64,000 bases of DNA from Planctomycetota bacterium (lineage in GTDB: Bacteria; Planctomycetota; SZUA-567; H5-PLA8), in NCBI GenBank assembly GCA_035308565.1, contig DATGGK010000269.1, positions 23,656-87,655 of the forward strand. The letters run 5' to 3'. The translations under genes and the position numbers were made by a program. Shown here one piece after another: positions 7,387-43,773 of the stretch. Each line of letters begins with the position of its first letter. The first letter of the stretch is position 1. The notes under the pieces are model-generated. The model saw nothing but the letters and a program-made list of their open reading frames with translations, made no database searches and was not told the DNA's origin.

Positions 7387-7733
7387 CAAATAGAGGAAAC
7401 TGCATCCTTGGGCCGTCGTGTGCGATGTCGGAGCCTCGTGCTATGGCAAACGGCGTCTCCGTGAACAAGGGCATCATCCAAGATGCCGGCGCTTGCCTTC
7501 GGCTCGGCTTTCTTCGTATTCGTGAGCGACAAAGCGAATCGCGGGAAGCGCTTTACGCCTCCGAGGAAATCCGCATCCTTTGCGCACACTGAAAATGCGC
7601 GACGGACAAAGCTTCGCCTACTCAGTTTTACCGCCAAAGAATCCCGATTTCTTCGAAAGGATTAGCCGCGCCAGCGTCTTTAGAAGGGAATATCCAAATC
7701 AAACTTTTCGATCCGAAATTGAGGGAACGTACT

Positions 7734-9026
7734 ATGCCGCTATTTTCAACGACCAAATTCTGGCGCCAATTGGCGAATGCGTTCCTTTTGGGCCTGATGT
7801 TTCTTCAAAAAGCCAGATCGGAAGAAGCTGCGGCCACCAAACAGCATTCGATTGAACTGCCGCCGATGCCCGCGGCGAAGGATGTCGTTCCCACGCCGCT
7901 GCTTGAAAGCGAGAATTACAAAATCGCGGAGGACGTTTCGATTTCGAATTATTACTACCGCTTCCACGTCGAATCGACGAGCTATGGAACGTACGACGTC
8001 GATTCGCTGGACCTCCTTCAGGTTCGCCTGTTCGAGATCGGCGTCCTGTCGAAGGCCAACGCTGTCAACGGCGGAGCAGATTTCACAAAAGGCGCGAAAT
8101 CCGACTTGAGCGACACGGCAAAGGCTGCGGCAAAGAGCGTGGTCACCCCGGTTAAATCGGCGAAAGCCCTGGGCGCGGTCATCGAGGATAGCGGACGCGC
8201 CGCCTATGATTTCGTTCGATTAAAGAATCGCAACCAGCCGAAGGATTCGCTGTTGACGGGCGAAGAAAAGCGCAAGGATGCGCACAACCTCGGTCTGGAC
8301 GTCTATTCGACCAATCCGGCCGTGCAGGCTTATCTCGATCAACTCGCCAAATCGCGGGCGACCGGCAGCCGCTTGGTCGATGTGGGCGTCAGCGTGGGCA
8401 CGTTCGTCATGCCCTTCGGAACGCCGGTCAGCGCGGCGATCGCGGCTGGGAAATACCGGGAGAAGCTCGCCGACAAGCTCGACACGATGTCGCCGATGGA
8501 ATTGTATCGTTACAACGACAAAATCCTGAAGAAAATGGACGTCCAGTCGCACGACCGCGAGAACTTCCTGGAATATGCGGATCTCACGCCGAAACAGAAA
8601 ACCGAGATCGTGGCGGATTTGAAGACGCTTGACAACATGCCCGATAAAACTCCCTTTCTTCATGCGTGTGTCGAGCAGCATCCGGCCGAGGGCATCTGGC
8701 AGATACAATGCGCTGATATTCTGGCCAAATACAACAAGACCGTGGATACGATTCAATGGACAAGCAGCGCCGGCATGGCGCTCAATGCGATCTCGACGAA
8801 TGGAAAGCAGTTGATGATCTTTCCAGCGGACATTGTGTGTTGGACTGAAGAACTTCAGAAGACGATCGAAAAAAGCAATTCGATTACCGGAGTGACGCAG
8901 CGCGAATTCGTGACGCCAGCCCATTTGACAGAACGCGCAAAGAAAGAAATCGAAACTCACGGATTTGCGGTGCGAGAGAGCTTTTTGATCGAAGTTCAGC
9001 CTGATGGCGTGAAGGCCACGAAATAG
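7734..9026 (+). CDS. Hypothetical secreted protein
   Basis: ATG at 7734 preceded by GAGGGA. Signal-like N-terminus (FLLGLMFLQKA). 431 aa; no family recognised. Confidence 0.55.
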   Translation: MPLFSTTKFWRQLANAFLLGLMFLQKARSEEAAATKQHSIELPPMPAAKDVVPTPLLESENYKIAEDVSISNYYYRFHVESTSYGTYDVDSLDLLQVRLFEIGVLSKANAVNGGADFTKGAKSDLSDTAKAAAKSVVTPVKSAKALGAVIEDSGRAAYDFVRLKNRNQPKDSLLTGEEKRKDAHNLGLDVYSTNPAVQAYLDQLAKSRATGSRLVDVGVSVGTFVMPFGTPVSAAIAAGKYREKLADKLDTMSPMELYRYNDKILKKMDVQSHDRENFLEYADLTPKQKTEIVADLKTLDNMPDKTPFLHACVEQHPAEGIWQIQCADILAKYNKTVDTIQWTSSAGMALNAISTNGKQLMIFPADIVCWTEELQKTIEKSNSITGVTQREFVTPAHLTERAKKEIETHGFAVRESFLIEVQPDGVKATK

Positions 9027-27000: not shown

Positions 27001-30000
27001 CGCATTCGAGGTGTCGTGGACGAACAGCAAAGTGGTCTTGAGCCAGTTGAACGCCGACGAATCCGACGCGCAGGTCTTCTGCGAACTGGCCGCGCCGATT
27101 CTCTTCGCGTCGCCGTTCCATCGCGCCGCGCCGGGCGTGCTGGCCCGTAATAAACGCAACCAATCGGGCCTGTGGGGCCAGGGGATTTCCGGCGACTATC
27201 CGATCGTTCTCCTGCGGATCAGCGACGTCGCCAACATCGAACTGGCGCGCGAGGCGTTGAAGGCTCATGCCTTCCTGCGCATGAAGGGCCTGGCCTTCGA
27301 TCTGGTCATCTGGAACGAAGATTCGTCGATGTATCGCCAGTCGCTCCATGATGAGTTGATGGGCGTCGTGATGACGGGTACGGAGGCCGGCATGCTCGAC
27401 AAGCCGGGCGGCATCTTCATTCGCCGCGGCGATCAGATCGCGGAAGAAGACCGCGTGCTGCTGCAAACGCTCGCTCGCGTGACGCTTCAGGAAGGCCGCG
27501 GACGATTGGAGGATCAAATCCAACGCCGTGCGATCGCCGAGTTCAGGCCGCCGAAATTTGTGCCCACGCGCATGGGACTGCTCCATCAGGCTCCGGCGCG
27601 GCCGAACGCCACACCGCGGCCTTTTGCGATCGAAGCCTTGAAATTCTTCAACGGAACCGGCGGCGCCGCAGTGGTGCAGACGTCCCGCTCGCACGATTCT
27701 GGAATTGCAGGCGAGACGCCTGCGCTACGGGACACGTCCGGCGGCGGTTTTTCGAGGGACGGCCGCGAATACATCCTTTTATTGAAGCACGGATACAGCA
27801 CACCGGCTCCGTGGTGTAACGTGATCGCTAATTCATTTTTTGGCACCGTCATCTCCGAAAGCGGCAGCGCGTATTCGTGGGCGGAGAACGCACACGAATA
27901 TCGTTTGACGCCCTGGCACAACGACGCGGTGCTCGACGGGAGCGGTGAATGTTTCTATTTACGCGATGAAGAAACCGGTTACTTCTGGTCGCCCACGCCC
28001 AAGCCGGTGCGCGGCGAAAGCGATTACCGCGTGCGGCACGGCTTCGGCTACAGCATCTTCGAGACGGTCCACAATGGCATTCGATCCGAAATGACCGTGT
28101 TCGTCGTGCCGGACGCGCCGGTGAAGATCGTGCTGCTGAAACTGCGCAACGAATCCGCCGAGCGGCGTGTGATGACGGCCACTGCGTATTGGGAATGGGT
28201 GCTCGGGGAAGGCCGGCCGAAAAACGCGCAGCATGTAGTTACGGAGCCCGACCGCACGGGCGCAATCTACGCGCGAAATGCATACAATACCGATTTTCAA
28301 AGCCGGGTTAGTTTCTGCACCGTCAGCGACCGGAACCGTTCGGTCACCTGCGACCGGGCGGAATTCATCGGCCGAAACGGGAGGCTTGAAAATCCGGCTG
28401 CCATGCGCAGTACGCGCTTGTCCGGACGCGTCGGGGCAGGTTTGGATCCGTGTACCGTCTTTCAAGTAAAAGTTGACTTCCATCCGGGCGAGGAACGCTG
28501 GGTTGCCTTTGCGCTGGGTGCCGGAAAGAATGCCTCCGAAGCGCAAGCTCTCGCCCAACGCTACCAATCCGTGGACACGGCCCAGCGCGCGTTGGAACGA
28601 GTGCGCCAGAACTGGCGGCGCACTCTAGGCGCGATTCAGATCGAGACGCCCGATCCGGCATTCGATACGCTCGCCAACGGATGGCTGATCTACCAAGTTT
28701 TGTCGTGCCGCGTTTGCGCGCGCAGCGGATTTTATCAGTCGGGCGGAGCCTACGGCTTCCGCGATCAATTGCAGGACGTGATGGCGTTGACTTTTGCCGC
28801 GCCCGAATTGACCCGCGAGCACGTGCTGCGTTGCGCCGCGCGCCAATTCGAAGACGGCGACGTCCAGCATTGGTGGCATCCGCCTGTCGGACGCGGCGTT
28901 CGCACCAAGTTCTCCGACGATTATCTCTGGCTGCCTTACGCCGTCAGCCGGTACGTGCTGACCACGGGGGACACCGGCGTGCTCAGCGAGAGCGCGTTCT
29001 TTTCCGTAGGCCGCGCGTTGAAGCCCGAAGAGGAAGCCTACTACGACGTGCCTCATCCATCGGATAAATCCTCGACTCTTTACGAGCACTGCAAGCGTGC
29101 GCTGACCCATGCGCTGCAACGCATGGGCCAGCACGGCCTGCCGCTGATGGGTTGCGGCGACTGGAACGACGGCATGAATCTGGTTGGAATCAAAGGCCAA
29201 GGCGAAAGCGTGTGGCTGGCCTTTTTCCTCCACGACGTCCTGACTCAATTCGGAGCCGTGGCGCAACGCGTGAGTGACGCATCGATGCAGCAGATGTGCG
29301 AAGAAGGCGTAAAACAGTTGCGTACAGCTATCGGCTTGCACGCGTGGGACGGCAACTGGTATCTGCGGGCATTCTTCGACAATGGCCAGCCCCTGGGTTC
29401 CGCGTCCAACCCGGAATGCCAGATCGACTCCCTGCCGCAAAGCTGGGCGGTGCTCTCCAAGGCCGGCGATCCCGATCGCTGCCGGCACGCCATGAATGCC
29501 GTCTTTGAGCGGCTGGTTCACAAAGACCAGCGCTTGATTCAGCTCTTCACTCCTCCGTTCGACAAGTCGGATTTGAACCCGGGCTATATCAAAGCGTATG
29601 TGCCCGGCGTCCGCGAAAACGGAGGACAATACACGCACGCCGCGATTTGGGCCGTGATGGCCTTTGCGGAGCTTGGTGACGTCGAACGCGCGTGGGATCT
29701 GTTGCGAATGCTTAATCCCATTAATCATGGGTCAACGGCTGAGGATATCGACATCTACAAGGTTGAGCCTTACGTCATGGCGGCGGACGTGTATGCTTTG
29801 CCGCCGCATACGGGGCGCGGAGGCTGGACATGGTACACCGGTTCCGCCGGCTGGATGTATCGTTTGATGATCGAGACGCTGTTGGGCATTCGACGCGAAG
29901 TCAACGTGCTGAAGGTTCAGCCGCGCGTGCCCAAAAGCTGGAAGACTTTCTCGATTCAATATCGCTTCCGCGAAACGTTGTATCGCATCAAAGTCGAGCG

Positions 30001-30175
30001 AACTTTGGATACTCCGGGCGTCGTTGTCGATGGCGTAGGACAGAAAGAGCGCGATGGGTTTACGTTACAAAACGACGGTCGCGAGCATAACGTGGTCGTT
30101 AAGTTTTCGGATGAGAAACCTGTGGTTGTGGAAGCGGTTGCTCAGGATGCGCAGTTGCAAATGGCGCACGCATAA
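21095..30175 (+). CDS. ndvB: Cyclic beta-1,2-glucan synthase (NdvB/ChvB/Cgs family): GT84 glycosyltransferase core with TM segments plus a C-terminal GH94 glucan-phosphorylase-like domain
   Basis: 3026-aa single ORF. The N-terminal region (RAELFSPEQLQSHAEALAAMH), the multi-TM GT domain, and the long C-terminal (alpha/alpha)6 GH94-like region with the conserved GCGDWNDGMN motif all match what is remembered of Brucella/Sinorhizobium Cgs/NdvB. Confidence 0.88.
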   Translation: MQIQFSILKTYNAHRRESTAILNHLPNFVKNVRLRWNGRLPEGGAAHGSAEAEPPFRAELFSPEQLQSHAEALAAMHRISTARHSERLLPRLKENERIIDRTYNVVTEMVHDGVHVPPAGEWLLDNYYIIKEHISLAREHLPKRFSKELPLLDKGPAEGFPRIYHLATELITHVDGRVDLDNLSSFIASYQRKAELTIGELWAIPIVLRLTLIENLRRVAQRLSAARNDCALAEKWAKQLVQMAEKDPQNLVLVLADMVNAKLPSSSAFVAELCRRLQGQSPTLALALSWFEQRLAEQGISSEQLILSEGPVQALDQVSIGNTISSLRLLSAIDWREFVERHSVMEAILRAEPAGIYPRMDFETRDAYRHTVERIAKKFRRSESDVARRIVEIARDAGAHVADVPPASSESRRRDACATASKQAHIGYYLVDKGLKKVAKIFGGSISSTHPAACTRMGLRLCGYLLGLLAFTALLTAPFVLALLYSGISVVLTCVLSVLFAVCASQAALHILNSLVVRIVSPQRLPQMDFSAGIPDGCRTMVVIPTMLTGSKVVDNLIEGIEIRYLANRDDNIFFALLTDFSDAAQETEPGDAALVTNLQDKITALNIKYASDRPTIFFLYHRPRRWNEREGVWMGTERKRGKLCEFNRALRSCTPSEFGCVSQGVVTVGDQTLLPTFKYVITLDTDTQLPRNAARRMAAAMAHPLNRPVYDAARGRIVEGYGLLQPRVALNLSTSRRTFFARLNAPDAGVDPYTRIASDVYQDLFGEGSFVGKGIYDIDAFDYACGKHFPENRILSHDLIEGCYARSGLLTDAELYEDFPARINADIQRRHRWMRGDWQIAGWLLPWPPHSKGNSARNALSALSRWKILDNLRRSVVAPCAVILLAATWLAFPKIAWQVSVGVVALTLLPALLMFAQSVLSRGRGVPRILHLHSVIRDLLHNLCLALMSLVFLASDAILSADAIVRTGWRLLMSRRKLLEWTTASDSERKAATTLLGYVREMSATVLLTLLLAFAVIQFSSAAISAAVPLLALWLLSPLVAYVISIPRSTHPETVGADDRLFLREIARRTWRFFSDFVTPEEHWLPPDNFQQTPKPLIASRTSPTNMGAALLSTLAAFDFGYLSAKTLVFRLNATLQSMASLPRYQGHFFNWYNTRTCQPLIPNYVSSVDSGNLLSYLLVLRGGLSELHSARLLPDAAHDLAGLADTVRCLQGAVRDALAENKPSASETGRRDAGGTAHVGAAQALLLLAAETAPTLRARVKMLARFIDAARLFHSTVSNAYPDTEVVHWADAVVAHAEDLHENVLTYAPWLARDGVPASLGADLRFQRFEAACSLKSAAELDSQLAPFFEERLTRQGIVPAEQTELTQWREEIHAGAENARQTLADVEALSDLCTHLSEMNFDFLFDRTRLLLAIGYNASDQRLDGSFYDLLASEARVASYVGIALGKLPPKHWFMLGRKLTASGGDPALLSWSGSMFEYLMPALIMPSYEGSLLDQTKKAVVKWQIDYAAKNGIPWGISESGFSARDIEQNYQYRAFGVPGLGFKRGLSEDLVIAPYASVMALMVAPRQACANLRELAGLQALNAYGFFEAIDYTASRLRKGQKLSIVRSFMAHHQGMSMLALTHFLLDKPMQRRFSLDPRLRATDLLLQERVPRTAVPIYPHSAEEEHLETKAEPKGARIREFKTPDTASPEVQLLSNGRYHVMLTSAGGGYSRCKDLALTRWSEDGTCDPWGQFCYIRDVESGRVWSATHQPTLDGAGTGGDFLVHFGHSSAEFRRQEMGITTHLDVCVSPEDDVELRLLKVANASRVKRRIEVVTYAEVVLNTSGADQSHPAFSNLFVQTEIVKEKSAILCTRRPRGEHETPVWLFHQVTFKGNVPGDVSFETDRAKFIGRGGSLKNPLALRETQAHSGTCGSVLDPIVSVRRTIELQPMESVELQLVTGVADSRAAALGLVDKFQDYRLCERAFEVSWTNSKVVLSQLNADESDAQVFCELAAPILFASPFHRAAPGVLARNKRNQSGLWGQGISGDYPIVLLRISDVANIELAREALKAHAFLRMKGLAFDLVIWNEDSSMYRQSLHDELMGVVMTGTEAGMLDKPGGIFIRRGDQIAEEDRVLLQTLARVTLQEGRGRLEDQIQRRAIAEFRPPKFVPTRMGLLHQAPARPNATPRPFAIEALKFFNGTGGAAVVQTSRSHDSGIAGETPALRDTSGGGFSRDGREYILLLKHGYSTPAPWCNVIANSFFGTVISESGSAYSWAENAHEYRLTPWHNDAVLDGSGECFYLRDEETGYFWSPTPKPVRGESDYRVRHGFGYSIFETVHNGIRSEMTVFVVPDAPVKIVLLKLRNESAERRVMTATAYWEWVLGEGRPKNAQHVVTEPDRTGAIYARNAYNTDFQSRVSFCTVSDRNRSVTCDRAEFIGRNGRLENPAAMRSTRLSGRVGAGLDPCTVFQVKVDFHPGEERWVAFALGAGKNASEAQALAQRYQSVDTAQRALERVRQNWRRTLGAIQIETPDPAFDTLANGWLIYQVLSCRVCARSGFYQSGGAYGFRDQLQDVMALTFAAPELTREHVLRCAARQFEDGDVQHWWHPPVGRGVRTKFSDDYLWLPYAVSRYVLTTGDTGVLSESAFFSVGRALKPEEEAYYDVPHPSDKSSTLYEHCKRALTHALQRMGQHGLPLMGCGDWNDGMNLVGIKGQGESVWLAFFLHDVLTQFGAVAQRVSDASMQQMCEEGVKQLRTAIGLHAWDGNWYLRAFFDNGQPLGSASNPECQIDSLPQSWAVLSKAGDPDRCRHAMNAVFERLVHKDQRLIQLFTPPFDKSDLNPGYIKAYVPGVRENGGQYTHAAIWAVMAFAELGDVERAWDLLRMLNPINHGSTAEDIDIYKVEPYVMAADVYALPPHTGRGGWTWYTGSAGWMYRLMIETLLGIRREVNVLKVQPRVPKSWKTFSIQYRFRETLYRIKVERTLDTPGVVVDGVGQKERDGFTLQNDGREHNVVVKFSDEKPVVVEAVAQDAQLQMAHA

Positions 30176-30187
30176 AGAGCGATATCA

Positions 30188-30233
30188 TATAGGGTTTCAC
30201 CCCATAGATATGCCTCTGGAAACATCGTACAGT
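30188..30233 (+). promoter_or_regulatory. Promoter-like motif, instance 5: ATAGGGTTTCACCCCATAGATATG plus CGTACAGT 16 nt downstream
   Basis: Begins 13 nt after the glucan synthase stop; upstream of the small-protein/DUF3309 gene pair. Confidence 0.45.
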
Positions 30234-30458
30234 GCCTATGTCAGAAGCATTTGATGAAAATAAGATTTAGTTTAACGCGGGAACGGAATCTCGATGGAGG
30301 CTGTCCCTCTGAAGTAAAATTCGAAGTCACATCAATCATCCCCGAAAGTTCTCTGCCCTCTTCCGCAATTAACAACCCCTGTTGAGGCTCCATTTCCCGC
30401 ATTTTTGATTTCTGTTTGCAAAGCGCATCTCAAACTCATTTGAACAAAGGAAACGCTC

Positions 30459-30626
30459 ATGATGAAGAACATTCCCCTTAAGCGTAATCTACCCATGCTG
30501 AAGGAAGCGGAGCGAAAAGAGCGCGAGGATAACGCGGCGAAAAGACTCTCTTCGAACCTCAACGAGGCCGTGGAAAAGAGCATCGCAAAGAAGTCCAAGG
30601 ACGAAGTACAGTCCAAGCCCAGTTAA
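30459..30626 (+). CDS. Small hydrophilic protein (55 aa); below the 60-aa ORF-track cutoff
   Basis: ATG at 30459 with AAGGA upstream. MMKNIPLKRNLPMLKEAERKEREDNAAKRLSSNLNEAVEKSIAKKSKDEVQSKPS. Confidence 0.35.
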   Translation: MMKNIPLKRNLPMLKEAERKEREDNAAKRLSSNLNEAVEKSIAKKSKDEVQSKPS

Positions 30627-30698
30627 CAACATCCACGCGGTTATCGCAATGGATTCAGATGCCAGGAAGAATCGCAACACCAACCGGAGGTAATAGTC

Positions 30699-30854
30699 AT
30701 GCTAGGTACAATTTTGATTGTCGTGCTCATTCTCGCGCTGCTCGGCGCCATTCCCACATGGGGACACAGCAGAGAATGGGGTTATGGTCCCAGCGGCGGG
30801 CTGGGTCTCGTTCTGCTGATCGTCGTAATACTGATGTTCATGGGCAGAATTTAG
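30699..30854 (+). CDS. DUF3309-family small membrane protein (51 aa); below the ORF-track cutoff
   Basis: GGAGG lies 8 nt before the ATG. MLGTILIVVLILALLGAIPTWGHSREWGYGPSGGLGLVLLIVVILMFMGRI matches the DUF3309 consensus (PTWxxSRxWGYxPSGGLG). Confidence 0.7.
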   Translation: MLGTILIVVLILALLGAIPTWGHSREWGYGPSGGLGLVLLIVVILMFMGRI

Positions 30855-30967
30855 CCGTCCAGCGGGGAGCCATTTAGACGCACAGGAGTCTGGCGAAACC
30901 ACCAGCCCAGCAGGTGCGTCGCATTACTGGTTTTCCAACTCAGTTAGAATCTGCGGGGAGCAAATCG

Positions 30968-31471
30968 ATGGCTGAAATCAATCCCGATCCTTATAAAGCT
31001 GGAGATCCACTTGGACCCATTGGCCGCGTTACAGCGATTTTCAGTTCACTGGCAGATTTAAAGTCCGCTTTGCCCGCGATAAAGAATGCGGGAATCAAGG
31101 GCGACGACACGGCAGTCTTCATTGGAGCCGAAGGTGCGGTGCAACTCGACGCAAGCGGCGAAATTCGCGACATTGCAGGCTTGAAAATGTTTCAAAACGC
31201 CGTGTGCGACGAGGCGCAGTTATTCGAAGAATTCGAACAGGCGTTGGCCGTCGCGGTTCCGCTGAACAGGACCGTGTCGCTCGCGGGGTCATTCGTGGGC
31301 GTGCCGTTGGGCGACCAGTTCAGCGGATCTTCAAAATCCAGGCTGTTCGCGCCGGTCCATGTGTACTGCTGCGCAAAAACGGAAAGAAAAGAAGCGAACG
31401 AAATCAACACCAAGACCGACAGACCCGCAAACTTCATGCGTCCCATGCACATGACGGAGCCCCTCTCTTGA
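30968..31471 (+). CDS. Hypothetical protein (167 aa); its strand is uncertain versus the overlapping minus-strand fragment
   Basis: ATG at 30968. Protein-like, but the first 30 codons have low GC3 and no family was recognised. It overlaps the next feature in antisense. Confidence 0.25.
   Translation: MAEINPDPYKAGDPLGPIGRVTAIFSSLADLKSALPAIKNAGIKGDDTAVFIGAEGAVQLDASGEIRDIAGLKMFQNAVCDEAQLFEEFEQALAVAVPLNRTVSLAGSFVGVPLGDQFSGSSKSRLFAPVHVYCCAKTERKEANEINTKTDRPANFMRPMHMTEPLS
31192..31437 (-). pseudogene. Truncated N-terminus of an 'autotransporter-associated beta-strand repeat' type secreted protein (PVC-typical)
   Basis: MKFAGLSVLVLISFASFLSVFAQQYTWTGANSLDFEDPLNWSPNGTPTNDPASDTVLFSGTA is the stereotyped start of these proteins. 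GC3 is high. It stops after about 80 aa and does not continue in any frame. Confidence 0.35.
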
Positions 31472-31608
31472 GTTGTGATCAATGCCGCAAGAGTAATGAG
31501 ATGGCACTTTGAGTGGCAACATCAATCTGCGCTTTAGCGCAAATAAAATAACGTTTTGAGCAGGGGACAAACCACGATTCAAGCGATTGGCGTTGACGAT
31601 TGAGTGGA

Positions 31609-32172
31609 TTAGAGGCCGAGGCGTTGGAATTCGGCGCAGGCGGATTGAAGGGAAGGTGGCGGATTGCCCTCGAGTTTTCCACGGCGGCACATGGCGGCAA
31701 GTTTTTCGACTTGTGGCTGGCATCGGCTTTCTTCTTTTTTATATTTCGGATATTTATCTTGATCGTCAGCAGCAAGTTCTACAACCTCCTCGCCACGGAG
31801 ATACGCCAGCCAAGTTTCAATATTTCGCTTTGGAATAATGAATGCAAATTTTTCGGTCGGAGTTCGAAATTGTATAGGCTCGTCGCGGCATATTTTCTCA
31901 AACCAATCCAGCCGATCCTGAACAGTCAGCTTGTCAGCGTCCGCAATAACAATCAGACAAGTTGCCGCGCGACTGCTTCGCGCGCGGAACCATTTCAACT
32001 CCTTAATGAATTGCTCGCGAACAAATTGCTCCGCGGATCCCTTGCCAGGCTTAATGGCAACTTCACGTAATTTTCGAGTGTCGAATTTCCGTTCTTTCAG
32101 GAATCGGCTCGCGAAGCTCCGATGTTGAACATCTTCATAAAGAAGTGTGATAAAGACAGCATCTTTGCTCAT
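31609..32172 (-). CDS. Small Toprim-like (RloB/DUF4276-like) partner protein of the upstream ATPase
   Basis: 187 aa. The N-terminal VFITLLYEDVQ provides the conserved Glu and IVIADADK provides a DxD motif, in the spacing expected for Toprim. Start overlaps the ATPase stop (ATGA). Confidence 0.55.
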   Translation of the reverse strand: MSKDAVFITLLYEDVQHRSFASRFLKERKFDTRKLREVAIKPGKGSAEQFVREQFIKELKWFRARSSRAATCLIVIADADKLTVQDRLDWFEKICRDEPIQFRTPTEKFAFIIPKRNIETWLAYLRGEEVVELAADDQDKYPKYKKEESRCQPQVEKLAAMCRRGKLEGNPPPSLQSACAEFQRLGL

Positions 32173-33314
32173 GCAATCCAGCCTCTGGCAACACCCTCAG
32201 AAGCTTTCATCCCTTCGATAGTTTCCTTCGGCGATTCACTGACGCGCACCGGCCCGTTACTTTCACGATCGAACCAGCGGCCCGAATTCATCGCCAAATA
32301 GTCGATTATCTCCGGGTGGTGCGAAATAAGTACCACTTGCTCAATTCCATTATCGCATGCATCCGATAATTCTCTAAGCCACGGTTGGATTTCCCGCAAC
32401 GCAACATAGTTGTCTGGTTCGTCAAGAAAAAGACAATATCCTTGGCCTTTTAGCCCAAATAGTAATGAATATAACGCCACAAGAACGCGCTGCCCGTCCG
32501 ACAGTTCACCGAAATCAAATGATATTGATCTTCCGGATCCATGATTTAGATCGAACAGAACTTTTAATATTCGCGTTTTCTCGCCTTCAGCTTTGATATT
32601 GAAGCTGTTAAATCCGGGCAGCACTTTCTTGAGTTCTTGAAAAATAAGGAAGGCTTGACCTTGATGCTCCTGTGATAAGAACCGATACCAAGCGGCAAAG
32701 TTAGCCATATTACGTGACAGTGCTCGATCCTCAGATTTGCTCTCAGAACTCATCATCGTCGGACAGACCGTTGCAATAATGAGCTTTTCCAATTCAATGC
32801 AAAAAATGTTTAGGCGGTTCATGTGAGGACTGCCCTTAAACGTTCCCACTCCCGACCTGTTCAAATCATATTTGCATTCCACATGATTGTTTGTCCGTTC
32901 ATCGAGGACTGTCGCGTTGCCGGAATTACACAAAAAAAGATTGCCAACCGACACGACTGCCCCTGTAGGGGTTGATTTACTGTTTGTACACATTAGACTC
33001 TCGTGCTTCACACAAGTCTGCTTTCTATCCTTGCTGTGCTCTATCAATAATCTATATTTGAAAACATCTTCTCCCTTCTCGAGCTCAACTTCAAGAACTT
33101 GAGTATCAAGCGTTTCCCATCGCGTTAAATCTTCGGCTGGAAAAATCTCTCGAACTTTCGATTCGCCAACCACGAGCTGCTGCAATTTCCAAAGCACTTC
33201 AAATACCGTCGTCTTCCCCGACCCATTCTCCCCCAACAGCAGATTCATCCGGTCGAACTTGATCTCAAAGTTCACCAGACATCGAAAATTGTCCACATAA
33301 AGCCGCTTCAACAT
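32169..33314 (-). CDS. ABC-type AAA_21-like ATPase (OLD/AbiLi/PtuA-class)
   Basis: N-terminal Walker A LLGENGSGKTT; C-terminal signature-like LSDGQRVL, Walker B CLFLDEPDNYV, and H-loop ISHHP, separated by a roughly 200-aa insert. The coding sequence is visibly AT-richer than its neighbours. Confidence 0.8.
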   Translation of the reverse strand: MLKRLYVDNFRCLVNFEIKFDRMNLLLGENGSGKTTVFEVLWKLQQLVVGESKVREIFPAEDLTRWETLDTQVLEVELEKGEDVFKYRLLIEHSKDRKQTCVKHESLMCTNSKSTPTGAVVSVGNLFLCNSGNATVLDERTNNHVECKYDLNRSGVGTFKGSPHMNRLNIFCIELEKLIIATVCPTMMSSESKSEDRALSRNMANFAAWYRFLSQEHQGQAFLIFQELKKVLPGFNSFNIKAEGEKTRILKVLFDLNHGSGRSISFDFGELSDGQRVLVALYSLLFGLKGQGYCLFLDEPDNYVALREIQPWLRELSDACDNGIEQVVLISHHPEIIDYLAMNSGRWFDRESNGPVRVSESPKETIEGMKASEGVARGWIA

Positions 33315-33431
33315 GGCGCCCTCTTTTCTGCCGAATCATTCTACAATACTATCTCGTCATTCTCCAAACGAAACCGGCGGGAAAAGCTCCTCGCCCTCCC
33401 GCCGGTCTCCAGTCTCTCGTCTCCAGTCTAT

Positions 33432-37754
<4,323 letters not shown>

Positions 37755-42511: not shown

Positions 42512-43231
42512 TCAAAACATTGTGGGTCCGAAGTAAAAAGTAGTCGGCCATTTCTCTGAAATTCGCTCTAGCACGGTGCGCTTTGAAATTGAAATTCGAA
42601 AATCCGCAAAAAGCTCCAACGGGTCTGGGATGCCATCATCACTGTTTGTCTTTACCTCGTAATCCAAATCCAACGCCTTAAACTGAATCGATCTCTCCTC
42701 GGATGATCCAAACGCGGGGGTCTCCACGAAATATTCGATTGGATCGCTGGACTCCTCCGTCAATTCGCTTCTATAATCAAAAGTGACGACCACGGGTCGT
42801 GCACGATGACACTTGACTACAAGCACCCGCCACACCTTATATCGATGCTCATTCCGATCAGAACTTTGAGCCGTTGCTCCGATGTGAATGTGCAGTCCTA
42901 CGCCTTCCTGCCAGTACATCGAATCGTAAATCTCAAATCCACGAAGAGACGCTGCCTTCTTGGAAAGTATGAACTCGTTTTCAGCAAGCGGCTTCGACCA
43001 ATCAATGGCTTCGTTTTCCGACACATCGCCTTGGAAGAAAATTGGATCCCCGCCAATTTGAATTTGCTGGTCACCGTGCATTCTGATCGGCACGTGAAGC
43101 TGCGCGATCTGGCGTCGATGCGCGTCGTTGTCAATTGCGCCCAAGTCCATTAAGCCACCTCGACCCAACTCTTGGCCCACGCAAACGAGCGCGTGAAGTG
43201 TCACGAGCACGAAAACTAATCGAGTTAACAT
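42512..43231 (-). CDS. Hypothetical secreted protein, lower GC; last gene of the minus-strand operon
   Basis: ATG at 43231 with signal peptide MLTRLVFVLVTLHALVCVG. The track start at 43270 is a TTG. Confidence 0.45.
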   Translation of the reverse strand: MLTRLVFVLVTLHALVCVGQELGRGGLMDLGAIDNDAHRRQIAQLHVPIRMHGDQQIQIGGDPIFFQGDVSENEAIDWSKPLAENEFILSKKAASLRGFEIYDSMYWQEGVGLHIHIGATAQSSDRNEHRYKVWRVLVVKCHRARPVVVTFDYRSELTEESSDPIEYFVETPAFGSSEERSIQFKALDLDYEVKTNSDDGIPDPLELFADFRISISKRTVLERISEKWPTTFYFGPTMF

Positions 43232-43266
43232 GTTATTTCTCCAATTCCAAGCATCGCGTACGTCGC

Positions 43267-43773
43267 TCAAAATCGAGGCAGCCCGACGCCCATGTTCTCG
43301 AGATTAAATTTCTCGCGTCTCAAACCGTTTGCGTCACCGAGATGGATCTTCGACTCTGAGTCTTCGAGTTTCCTCTCCAGAATCTTCGATTTCTTTGTTG
43401 GCGGATTCCACTTCCACCCCTTAATCAAGCTATCCGCATCCAACTCGTCCTTCCGGCCTCGTGGCGGCGAGATCCTCCAAATCTCGAACATCGACGGTCC
43501 GAAAAGACGTGCCTCGCGTTGCGGCGCAGGTTGGCGTGAACTCTCCGCGTTTATCATCGCGCGCAGTTGCGCAACCTCGCGCGCCAAGTCCGCCGAAAGC
43601 TGCGTTTGATTGTTGCCTGTCGCCACTTGCGGCACGTTTCCGCTGCAAGCGGCCTGTGCCGGCGGTGCCGCACGCGGACACGGCTCACAACATTCATCGC
43701 GGTCGTGGCAGGAACAGAGCAGCAGCGAAAGCGCAAGAGATGCGGCGGAAACAAGCAGGGACCGTTGACTCAT
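43267..43773 (-). CDS. Cys-motif lipoprotein, paralog 1
   Basis: Lipobox LLLCSC, then CHDRDECCEPCPR. The first 110 nt are about 85% identical to the next gene. Confidence 0.5.
   Translation of the reverse strand: MSQRSLLVSAASLALSLLLCSCHDRDECCEPCPRAAPPAQAACSGNVPQVATGNNQTQLSADLAREVAQLRAMINAESSRQPAPQREARLFGPSMFEIWRISPPRGRKDELDADSLIKGWKWNPPTKKSKILERKLEDSESKIHLGDANGLRREKFNLENMGVGLPRF

Follow-up and report, generated by a model that had tools for sequence, protein, structure and literature searches.

What are the two adjacent AT-rich genes that directly follow rpoC, on the same strand, in this stretch of planctomycetotal DNA (64,000 nucleotides; hereafter the window), and what could such a pair do? 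We addressed this question computationally, starting from a preliminary description that had taken the pair for an ATPase and a Toprim-like partner with a candidate anti-phage role. The answer that we consider fairly probable is that the pair is a self-contained, horizontally transferred two-gene operon that combines a compact ABC ATPase with a small Toprim-fold, metal-dependent nuclease and forms an unmodelled branch of the split "OLD-like" conflict systems, with PADLOC HEC-01, the mad3/mad4 genes of MADS, AriA/AriB of PARIS, and AbiL as its relatives. The features of the locus are collected in Table 1. Both ORFs lie where they had been reported, with the ATGA overlap (..GCATGAGC.. in the window) between them; the same 4-bp overlap is present in homologous loci, including that of a relative, L090, that is compared below, indicating that the ATPase and its partner are probably translationally coupled.

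Table 1. Features of the two-gene cassette and its upstream flank (window coordinates)
Feature	Position	Strand	Basis
ABC ATPase gene, 381 aa (AAA_21/AAA_15 type)	32169..33314	(-)	ORF, intact
Partner gene, 187 aa, predicted Toprim-fold putative metal-dependent nuclease	31609..32172	(-)	ORF, intact
ATGA stop/start overlap of ATPase and partner, 4 bp	32169..32172	(-)	read directly from sequence
Stable hairpin, likely rpoC terminator	33370..33409	(-)	13-nt inverted repeat; RNA fold
Sigma-70-like -35/-10 pair, TGGAGA / 17 nt spacer / TAGAAT	33338..33366	(-)	consensus scan, 9/12 matches
Shine-Dalgarno-like GAGGG, 4 nt upstream of ATPase ATG	33319..33323	(-)	sequence reading

The ATPase contains all of the ABC motifs. 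Walker A (GENGSGKT, residues 28-35, G28-T35), the signature LSDGQ (271-275), the Walker B/D-loop segment LFLDEPDN (295-302, Walker B being D298-E299) and the H-loop SHHP (331-334, with H332) are found as previously placed, and the Q-loop is represented by Q72. Walker A, the signature, the Walker B/D-loop and the H-loop are invariant or nearly so in 46 homologues, and a C-terminal tail, A-R-G-W, is also conserved. In Pfam the protein matches AAA_21/AAA_15. The top defence models are HEC-01A (the best, at 1.8e-22 and 78 bits), mad3 (7e-21, a full-length match) and PDC-M25A, and AriA and AbiLi are also matched; an hhalign comparison finds homology to bona fide HEC-01A over 307 columns (97%, E 8e-11). 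In the structure search, the ATPase model is a Rad50/SMC-type ABC head, and the ATPases of PtuA, AriA and OLD come close behind. A generic SMC, RecF or RecN repair ATPase, which had been named in advance as the finding that would speak against a defence-type pair, was checked by HMM and is rejected, and so is a Rad50-type one: the scores stay under the cut-offs (SMC_N, 33.9 bits with a cut-off of 40; RecF, 36.5 vs 172; RecN, 18.3 vs 408), the protein is small (381 aa), and its model contains neither a coiled coil nor a coiled-coil insert.

The partner carries the two motifs originally noted, LLYED (residues 10-14) and IADAD (76-80), although they are about 65 residues apart rather than about 70. 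Its key residues are E13-D14, D78-x-D80 and N117-I-E119-T-W. In 251 partner homologues, the Glu and the DxD are conserved at 99-100% (E13 99%, D78 100%, D80 99%), and D14 and E119 at 97% each. The AlphaFold model of the partner is confident. In agreement with the earlier Toprim reading, two independent methods both rank the Toprim domains of the OLD family as its nearest structures, the Toprim scores being moderate. In the secondary structure of the model, the conserved acids follow strands beta1 and beta3 and lie on the helix that succeeds beta4, and they appear to take the positions of the OLD two-metal site, which in Bp OLD comprises E400/E404, D455/D457 and T506/E508 (PMC6755086). On the basis of this model, the partner is predicted to be a Toprim-type nuclease. 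PH0156, the reported template for AriB/DUF4435 (PMC11381338), counts in favour of this reading as well.

At the sequence level, no Pfam, NCBIfam, PADLOC or PHROG model matches the partner, so that it is missed by current defence-annotation pipelines; this bears out the view that the pair is a divergent, uncharacterised subtype. A sequence-profile search of the PDB gives chance matches only, for example to neopullulanase at E 0.03. Among the partner relatives, weak colinear matches to HEC-01B cover the Toprim core in 31 of 46 (best 1.3e-6), and one relative covers the whole 110-position mad4 model at 1.1e-5; the window's own partner matches no defence model, with no HEC-01B match at E <= 1. Sub-threshold colinear matches to DUF4276 and DUF3226 occur in 8 and 21 of the 46 members, respectively. 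No member reaches the Pfam gathering score of DUF4276 (best relative, 18.3 vs 30.2 bits), and hhalign of the partner family against the DUF4276 alignment, which is itself narrow (>=64% identity), gives 0.07%; with so narrow an alignment, a distant relationship may still exist. Assignment of the partner to DUF4276, RloB or DUF4435 is rejected, as it falls under every threshold. Of the class originally suggested, the OLD-like ATPase/Toprim part stands; the best defence-model matches of the ATPase are to the ATPases of ATPase and Toprim pairs.

We regard it as clearly improbable that the partner is instead a Rossmann-like binder of nucleotides or 5'-phosphates (Argonaute-MID-like), or a regulatory adaptor, with the ATPase as the active component. 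Weak Pfam ArgoMid matches in 16 of the 46 members (best 1.1e-4) point in this direction, as do the moderate structural scores for Toprim, but these matches span residues ~77-126 only and lie under the family cut-off, and OLD Toprim domains rank top in both structure searches. In addition, the 5'-phosphate pocket of MID domains consists of Tyr, Lys and Gln, whereas the near-invariant residues of the partner are the acidic E/DxD/E set of the Toprim metal site.

ABC-ATPase/Toprim pairs are among the most diversified themes in prokaryotic immunity, including OLD, Gabija, PARIS, retron effectors, HEC-01 and MADS. Having the full set of ABC motifs (Q-loop and D-loop included), a partner model with a Toprim fold and conserved Glu and DxD, and obligate operonic linkage, the cassette falls within the established class of split ABC-ATPase/Toprim (OLD-like) systems, as a new and divergent form. 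It resembles the PADLOC candidate HEC-01 (Payne et al. 2024 preprint, 10.1101/2024.01.29.577857) in that the gene for a compact ABC ATPase precedes that for a small TOPRIM-like protein whose metal site is of the OLD type. However, genuine HEC-01 members reach 458 bits (A) and 255 bits (B) while the window ATPase scores 78 and the partner nothing, true HEC-01B is a DUF4276 protein at 174 bits, and the present partner has a distinct, Cys-bearing C-terminal region. Moreover, HEC-01 is defined as embedded in Hma systems, whereas the present cassette stands alone; with low model scores and no surrounding Hma/MADS-type system, it is not a member of HEC-01. Note that HEC-01, the nearest stand-alone relative tested, gave no protection from any phage used in the tests; if the present family were inactive like HEC-01 in E. 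coli, it would add to the puzzle of what such widespread pairs actually do.

In MADS, the methylation-associated defence system of P. aeruginosa, phage resistance is complete only when both mad3 and mad4 are present, and deletion of mad5, the methylase, is tolerated only when mad2 or mad3 is deleted too (bioRxiv 10.1101/2023.03.30.534895). The ATPase resembles the mad3 model and a partner relative the mad4 model, but against the NCBIfam mad3 equivalog NF047739 the ATPase reaches 43.4 bits where the cut-off is 420, over the N-terminal 86 residues only. In MADS, mad3 and mad4 are accessory genes in an eight-gene operon with a methylase and further components, and no such genes accompany the cassette. 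That mad3/mad4 act within an eight-gene system while the cassette is alone weighs against the explanation favoured here.

[quoted passage not shown] Its AriA (~53-55 kDa) and AriB (35 kDa) are larger than the cassette proteins, and PARIS is often borne by phages or satellites, whereas no member of the cassette family turned up on phages or, in a scan with a single peptide pattern, on viral contigs. The partner has no match to DUF4435/AriB, and the ATPase gives no more than local matches to the AriA models (55 and 51 bits); membership in PARIS is rejected. Similarly, AbiL is rejected with a weak AbiLi match (53.7 bits) and no AbiLii/RloB match for the partner, and Septu or retron PtuAB with a partner that has no HNH match and a Toprim-like fold.

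Class 1 and 2 OLD proteins (Ts OLD, 6P74; Bp OLD, 6NK8) and Gabija GajA provide the best structural matches of the partner, with the same layout of conserved acids as in the two-metal site, and their ATPase is of the same ABC type. In these proteins, however, a single chain carries both the ATPase and the Toprim domain, whereas the cassette is split, and the sequence identity is 9-13%. In OLD, a helical domain supplies a catalytic Lys. Class 2 OLD and Gabija have a UvrD-like helicase partner, and the cassette has none; having two separate ORFs and no recurrent helicase neighbour, it belongs neither to Class 1/2 OLD nor to GajA. Finally, the DUF4276, DUF3226 and RloB-AbiLii partners are similar in size, in operon position after an AAA_21 ATPase and in motif order (N-terminal Glu, mid-protein Asp, post-beta4 Glu), but DUF4276 has a single Asp (VDYY) at the position of the DxD of the present family.

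How the cassette is set into its surroundings can be read in part from the flanking signals. The upstream 1445-aa ORF is rpoC, as had been proposed, on the basis of the NADFDGDQM beta-prime motif and 570 RpoC relatives. Its stop codon (33432-33434) is directly followed by the hairpin (-31.7 kcal/mol, z = -3.9, with 0/200 shuffled sequences equally stable), which likely terminates rpoC and delimits the cassette on its upstream side. The sigma-70-like pair may be the cassette's own promoter, a call that is only suggestive because the count of such sites in the region is not above that in shuffles. Downstream of the cassette, the gene caller chooses a plus-strand ORF (30914-31471), which has no match in family-model searches. 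It is overlapped by a 96-aa minus-strand ORF (31192-31482) that starts with a signal-peptide-like sequence. A search around the cassette revealed neither flanking direct repeats nor a target-site duplication, two-copy repeats of 12-14 nt being at chance level. Association with a retron or another ncRNA is rejected: an Rfam search gives sub-threshold chance matches only, and the sole tRNA is 27 kb from the cassette.

The pair is foreign in composition. Its GC content is 0.43-0.48 against ~0.60 in the flanks, and GC3 is 0.45-0.48 (partner 0.452, ATPase 0.479) against 0.73-0.83 (3026-aa neighbour 0.727, rpoC 0.828), which confirms the AT-rich coding sequence and the loss of the host G/C preference reported earlier. 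On the downstream side, GC stays reduced (0.46-0.55) as far as position ~30000; the compositional island thus extends somewhat beyond the pair itself. In homologous loci, too, the GC of the cassette is below that of the flanks in nearly all hosts. Clustered at 50% identity, the family gives 1,700 groups or more, a sizeable added branch of this theme, and its hosts are scattered over ~10 phyla of uncultured bacteria; a single peptide pattern matched 114 of 185,579 species genomes, which is a lower bound. The cassette tree mixes phyla, in conflict with taxonomy. Composition and patchy cross-phylum distribution together support horizontal acquisition of the cassette. The further claim of a recent acquisition is not secured, given that the corresponding site in a relative is occupied by a divergent allele.

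This relative, L090, has an RpoC 88% identical to that of the window and carries a different cassette allele (45-51% identity) at the same rpoC-flanking site. The two are similar in nucleotide sequence precisely as far as the stop codon of rpoC; the hairpin that follows in L090 is a different one, and a HigBA pair adjoins its cassette. Both rpoC-linked copies are long branches in the tree. The cassette is absent from 79 other rpoC loci, which are distant and share neither flank; for an empty-site comparison, these loci are too distant and the sole close relative, L090, carries a cassette too. If the cassette is active, the two divergent alleles beside the 3' end of rpoC would illustrate how alleles can turn over while their place in the chromosome stays fixed.

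In two related genomes the pair comes right after rpoC and shares its strand, which might alternatively suggest a housekeeping pair for nucleic-acid processing or repair tied to the rpoBC operon, for example an ATPase resembling RecF or Rad50 together with a Toprim RNase resembling RNase M5. The proximity of the ATPase fold to Rad50/SMC heads would suit such a pair, and there is a precedent in RNase M5, a small Toprim RNase with the OLD active-site layout (PMC6755086). We nevertheless consider this very improbable. A strong hairpin separates rpoC from the cassette, the SMC_N score is under threshold and those of RecF and RecN far under their cut-offs, and the pattern search found the family in few species genomes (the lower bound given above). 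The composition is foreign and the cassette phylogeny conflicts with taxonomy. Lineage-wide synteny with host-like composition, against which the preliminary description had set its reading, is not what was found: the cassette is present at 0/79 other, distant rpoC loci and its GC3 is foreign.

We return to the two-gene conflict operon as the favoured reading. Pairing of the genes is obligate, the ATPase being immediately upstream of the partner in 79 of 80 genome loci, and no third gene recurs across homologous loci. In 51 loci, the genes right beside the cassette have for the most part housekeeping or metabolic functions. Among 145 neighbour ORFs there are two methylases, two transposases and two other ATPases; with defence or mobile neighbours this sporadic, guilt-by-association is weak, and no defence-island enrichment is seen for the family. 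In two loci the cassette adjoins other candidate ATPase-nuclease systems, one a true HEC-01 and one PDC-M07, and in one further locus MazE/Fic and phage-like genes. If active, such cassettes would show that systems of this type can live outside defence islands.

The same ATPase-controlled Toprim machine could also serve a selfish role, either in addiction or toxin-antitoxin-like stabilisation or in anti-plasmid or inter-element competition (compare the Toprim protein JetD of Wadjet), which we regard as unlikely, though it accounts for several observations. Cassettes occur alone in housekeeping surroundings rather than in defence islands and are AT-rich relative to nearly every host; divergent alleles occupy one rpoC-flanking site in two relatives, with HigBA beside that of L090 and MazE/Fic adjacent at another locus; and HEC-01 gave no phage protection. 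On the other hand, the family was found neither on any of 72,556 plasmids nor on phages, nor on viral contigs when these were scanned with one peptide pattern. An element that the cassette might stabilise is therefore not obvious, and the same result counts against the favoured reading, as it points to no vehicle of transfer. Moreover, integrases and transposases do not recur alongside the cassette in homologous loci, and the characterised relatives PARIS, OLD, Gabija and MADS are anti-phage. The cassette is probably a conflict or defence module, and an anti-phage role is plausible.

For the favoured operon, we infer a mechanism that runs from complex formation through a sensing step to nuclease activity on a substrate and a defence phenotype. 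Translational coupling would yield the ATPase and the partner in fixed proportion, forming a complex. The ATPase, dimerising head-to-head around ATP as ABC ATPases do, would act as sensor and gatekeeper and hold the nuclease inactive until an invader cue, possibly foreign nucleic acid or a protein encoded by a phage or mobile element, alters its nucleotide state. The partner would then cut nucleic acid via the two-metal site (E13/D14, D78, D80, E119/T120); the target could be DNA, as for OLD and Gabija, or tRNA, as for PARIS, and such cleavage would halt the invader or the cell that it has infected. The cassette is compact (381 + 187 aa) with no third component, and is therefore tractable for studying minimal control of a Toprim nuclease by an ABC ATPase.

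The helical C-terminal part of the partner bears conserved cysteines (Cys95/151/162/179). Tentatively, and with considerable doubt, these could form a Cys-rich metal- or redox-sensing helical module on the Toprim nuclease, in which case the family would be a distinct, unrecognised OLD-like class: an autonomous two-gene cassette of uncultured phyla that serves immunity or conflict away from defence islands, with divergent alleles exchanged at preferred sites such as the rpoC 3' flank.

Some features of the window's copy depart from the family. The ATPase has an insertion of ~13-16 residues (~109-124) that is missing in homologues and modelled with low confidence, and the partner is off consensus at positions 22 (S; R in 88%) and 137 (D; E in 98%). 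Together with the long branches of both rpoC-linked copies, these could mark a decaying, non-functional remnant of an old insertion, but such decay is hardly credible: both ORFs are full-length, and the conserved overlap, the Shine-Dalgarno sequence and every catalytic residue are intact.

There is strong computational evidence for a conserved unit of two coupled proteins, both catalytically intact. Both open reading frames proposed in the preliminary description are present, and the ATGA in which the ATPase stop codon overlaps the partner start can be read directly from the sequence. The 4-bp overlap is found again in homologous loci, and the ATPase gene lies directly 5' of the partner gene in 79 of the 80 reference-genome loci carrying the family, the lone exception being cut by a contig end. 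The spacer between the rpoC stop codon and the ATPase gene is 117 nt long.

Features of the cassette and its surroundings in the window
Feature	Position	Strand	Remarks
ATPase gene	32169..33314	minus	381-aa ORF
Partner gene	31609..32172	minus	187-aa ORF
rpoC	ends 33432		1445-aa ORF upstream of the cassette; NADFDGDQM and hundreds of RpoC relatives
Hairpin	33370-33409		within the rpoC-ATPase spacer; -31.7 kcal/mol, z = -3.9
-35/-10-like pair			within the rpoC-ATPase spacer; suggestive only, such sites being no commoner here than in shuffles
Shine-Dalgarno GAGGG	4 nt 5' of the ATPase ATG
DUF3309 membrane protein gene	30699-30854		51 aa; E 5e-24
96-aa ORF	31192-31482	minus	signal-peptide-like start MKFAGLSVLVLISFASFLSVFAQQ; overlaps a plus-strand 185-aa ORF

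In Pfam, the ATPase matches AAA_21 and AAA_15 above threshold; SMC_N stays under the Pfam cut-off, and scores against RecF, RecN and Rad50 in NCBIfam fall far short of the respective cut-offs. Its top matches among defence models are HEC-01A (1.8e-22, full length), the MADS gene mad3 (7e-21) and PDC-M25A (1e-20), followed by weaker or local matches to AriA, AbiLi and PtuA. Across 46 homologues there is little or no variation in Walker A, Q72 of the Q-loop, the signature S272-x-G-Q, Walker B D298-E299, the D-loop or the H-loop; that the pair is a decaying remnant is ranked lower. Also conserved in these homologues is an A-R-G-W tail at the C-terminus (residues 376-380, window 32172-32186; R377 invariant), which sits just before the overlapping partner start and may contact the partner. 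The window ATPase has about 13-16 extra residues at about 109-124 (window 32940-32990), TNSKSTPTGAVVSVGN, which the other aligned homologues lack and which are modelled at lower confidence (pLDDT about 63).

The window partner has no match in Pfam, NCBIfam, PADLOC or PHROGs, its family profile finds nothing significant among PDB sequences, and none of the 165 matches from a word-indexed search carries a Pfam domain. Despite matching no model, the partner is part of a large family: an exhaustive profile search returned 1,724 cluster representatives (50% identity), of which 1,385 reach E <= 1e-10. Its AlphaFold model is confident (pLDDT 89.5, pTM 0.87) and has the topology beta1-alpha1-beta2-alpha2-beta3-alpha3-beta4-alpha4, followed by two C-terminal helices. 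The best four Foldseek matches are C-terminal regions of OLD, an ABC-ATPase/Toprim nuclease, and are weak (E 4e-3 to 2e-2, TM about 0.4); the template obtained by others for AriB/DUF4435 is PH0156 (PMC11381338).

The two-metal site of Bp OLD comprises a Toprim Glu ending beta1 with a second acid one turn on, a DxD after beta3, a Lys, and a T/E on the first of the helices that follow beta4 (PMC6755086). The conserved residues of the partner family are E13-D14 (and Q16), D78-x-D80 and N117-I-E119-T120-W121. Scored in 251 homologues that are just 31-55% identical to the window protein, conservation is 100% for D78 and W121, 99% for E13 and D80, 97% for D14 and E119, and 95% for T120. Judged by position in the model, these residues appear to match those of the Bp OLD site; that the partner is a MID-like non-nuclease is ranked lower than a nuclease. 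In the helical part, four conserved cysteines (C151, C162 and C179 at 90-94%, C95 at 73% of the same homologues) hint at a Zn/Fe site or disulfides.

When all 46 aligned partner-family members are scanned singly against PADLOC and Pfam, recurrent colinear matches below threshold emerge. In PADLOC they are to HEC-01B in 31 members (best 1.3e-6) and to mad4 in five (1.1e-5), with further matches to PDC-M31B and PDC-M38B; in Pfam they are to DUF3226 in 21 members and DUF4276 in eight. The aligned spans pair partner residues about 45-121 with HEC-01B ~37-124, 1-116 with the whole mad4 model, and 12-122 with DUF4276 positions 5-107, covering the Toprim core and leaving out the C-terminal part. A genuine HEC-01 system 1.4 kb from the cassette in one genome (locus L083) serves as calibration: its ATPase scores 458 bits against HEC-01A and its partner 255 against HEC-01B and 174 against DUF4276, whereas the window ATPase scores 78 bits and the window partner gives no score. 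By hhalign, the ATPase family is similar to the L083 HEC-01A (97%, E 8e-11, 307 columns), and the partner family has no link (0.07%) to the DUF4276 alignment, which is narrow (members at least 64% identical). On these model scores and hhalign results, the pair is related to HEC-01 and mad3/mad4 as a distant sister and belongs to neither. The split ABC ATPase plus Toprim architecture is already known, with HEC-01, PDC-M31 and PDC-M38 as PADLOC candidate subtypes. Since the family falls outside every named system in the membership tests and none of four current libraries contains a model for the partner, the cassette is a variant within this known architecture.

The pair is best read as an OLD-like Toprim nuclease gated by its ATPase. 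By analogy with PARIS, an AriA ATPase with an AriB Toprim protein (PMC11464382), with OLD (PMC6755086) and with MADS, in which mad3/mad4 are genetically required (bioRxiv 10.1101/2023.03.30.534895), the two proteins would form a complex, sense a trigger and act on DNA or tRNA, with a corresponding phenotype. We place more confidence in this molecular identity than in the role; the ATPase-Toprim theme is familiar, and by the same analogy a conflict or defence role seems somewhat favoured. A simple anti-phage label meets three objections: HEC-01 gave no protection in E. coli, the family lies outside defence islands, and no transfer vehicle came to light, with no match to the family among 2.9 million viral contigs (searched with one peptide pattern), 72,556 plasmids and 50,697 phage genomes. 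Conflict or defence ranks above a role that is selfish or directed at plasmids, and above a housekeeping function.

Clustering of 397 neighbouring ORFs from 51 loci yields no gene family in more than four loci, and where a cluster spans three loci the genomes are close relatives. Most of the 145 nearest neighbours have housekeeping or metabolic roles (Met-tRNA synthetase, ALAD, aquaporin, dehydrogenases), with only two D12 methylases, two Mutator transposases and two more AAA_21 ATPases among them. Conflict-type neighbours occur at single loci, MazE/Fic with phage-like genes at one and PDDEXK_4 with SNF2/NOV_C at another. In two genomes the cassette adjoins a second candidate ATPase-nuclease system (L083:11936-13746, L087:10560-12314), namely the HEC-01 system used for calibration and a PDC-M07 ATPase plus PIN-like pair beginning 2 nt past the partner stop.

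The hosts belong to Planctomycetota, Verrucomicrobiota, Acidobacteriota, Gemmatimonadota, Actinomycetota, Bacteroidota (Rhodothermales), Alpha- and Gammaproteobacteria, Cyanobacteria, Latescibacterota, Binatia and Lentisphaerae. Every one of the 80 loci comes from a MAG and none from a cultured isolate; many of these MAGs are long-read environmental assemblies, including the sponge-associated Candidatus Poriferisodalis and Poriferihabitaceae. Phyla are mixed inside the clades of a neighbour-joining tree of concatenated ATPase and partner, and cassette GC is below flank GC in nearly all hosts. The family is sizeable, compact, unannotated and confined to uncultured lineages, and it includes an intriguing pair of rpoC-flank alleles.

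The second allele is on L090, a metagenomic contig from a close relative (RpoC C-terminus 88% identical, DNA 85.6% identical), whose nucleotide alignment with the window runs up to the rpoC stop codon and no further. Beyond it, L090 has a different hairpin and then a cassette of the same family (L090:3459-5213 vs window 31609-33431), which shares the ATGA overlap and MSKDAV start and stands out as a low-GC island with sharp edges (0.40-0.51 vs 0.60-0.65). Protein identity between the two cassettes is just 45% for the ATPase and 51% for the partner. Both copies fall in one subclade of the tree, each on a long branch, but they are not sisters, the window copy being nearer those of two Spartobacteria and Verrucomicrobiota MAGs (L010 and L011, 56%) than that of L090 (48%). 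The flanks 3' of the cassette are unrelated: as labelled from translations, L090:5221-8834 encodes a multi-pass membrane protein, a caspase-like protein (HGG...SACTSGG) and a HigB/HigA-like toxin-antitoxin pair, and a glycosidase-like gene also lies downstream; these genes were found neither in the window nor at the other 79 rpoC loci. In this lineage the rpoC 3' flank seems to be a variable region. The two cassettes may reflect replacement of one allele by another, or separate captures at a favoured site; alternatively, an old insertion may have diverged much faster than RpoC.

The AT-richness of the window pair, noted earlier by eye, is borne out by measurement: GC is 0.43-0.48 over the two genes vs ~0.60 around them, and GC3 is 0.452 and 0.479 vs 0.828 for rpoC and 0.727 for the 3026-aa neighbour. 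The sole departure is that a milder reduction extends beyond the pair to about position 30000. Of the recent horizontal acquisition that had been proposed, foreign origin is well supported and the acquisition may have been recent, with no empty rpoC-flank site found for comparison. The stretch 30175-31600, which separates the 3026-aa gene from the cassette, has a GC of 0.46-0.55 and also holds one 55-aa ORF; the 185-aa ORF there has no family match, and the 96-aa ORF is probably the 'truncated secreted-protein relic' of the preliminary description. Other low-GC, ORF-bearing stretches of the window, 42512-43303 (GC 0.495, GC3 0.52) and 7593-9026 (0.536, 0.66), may be further foreign segments.
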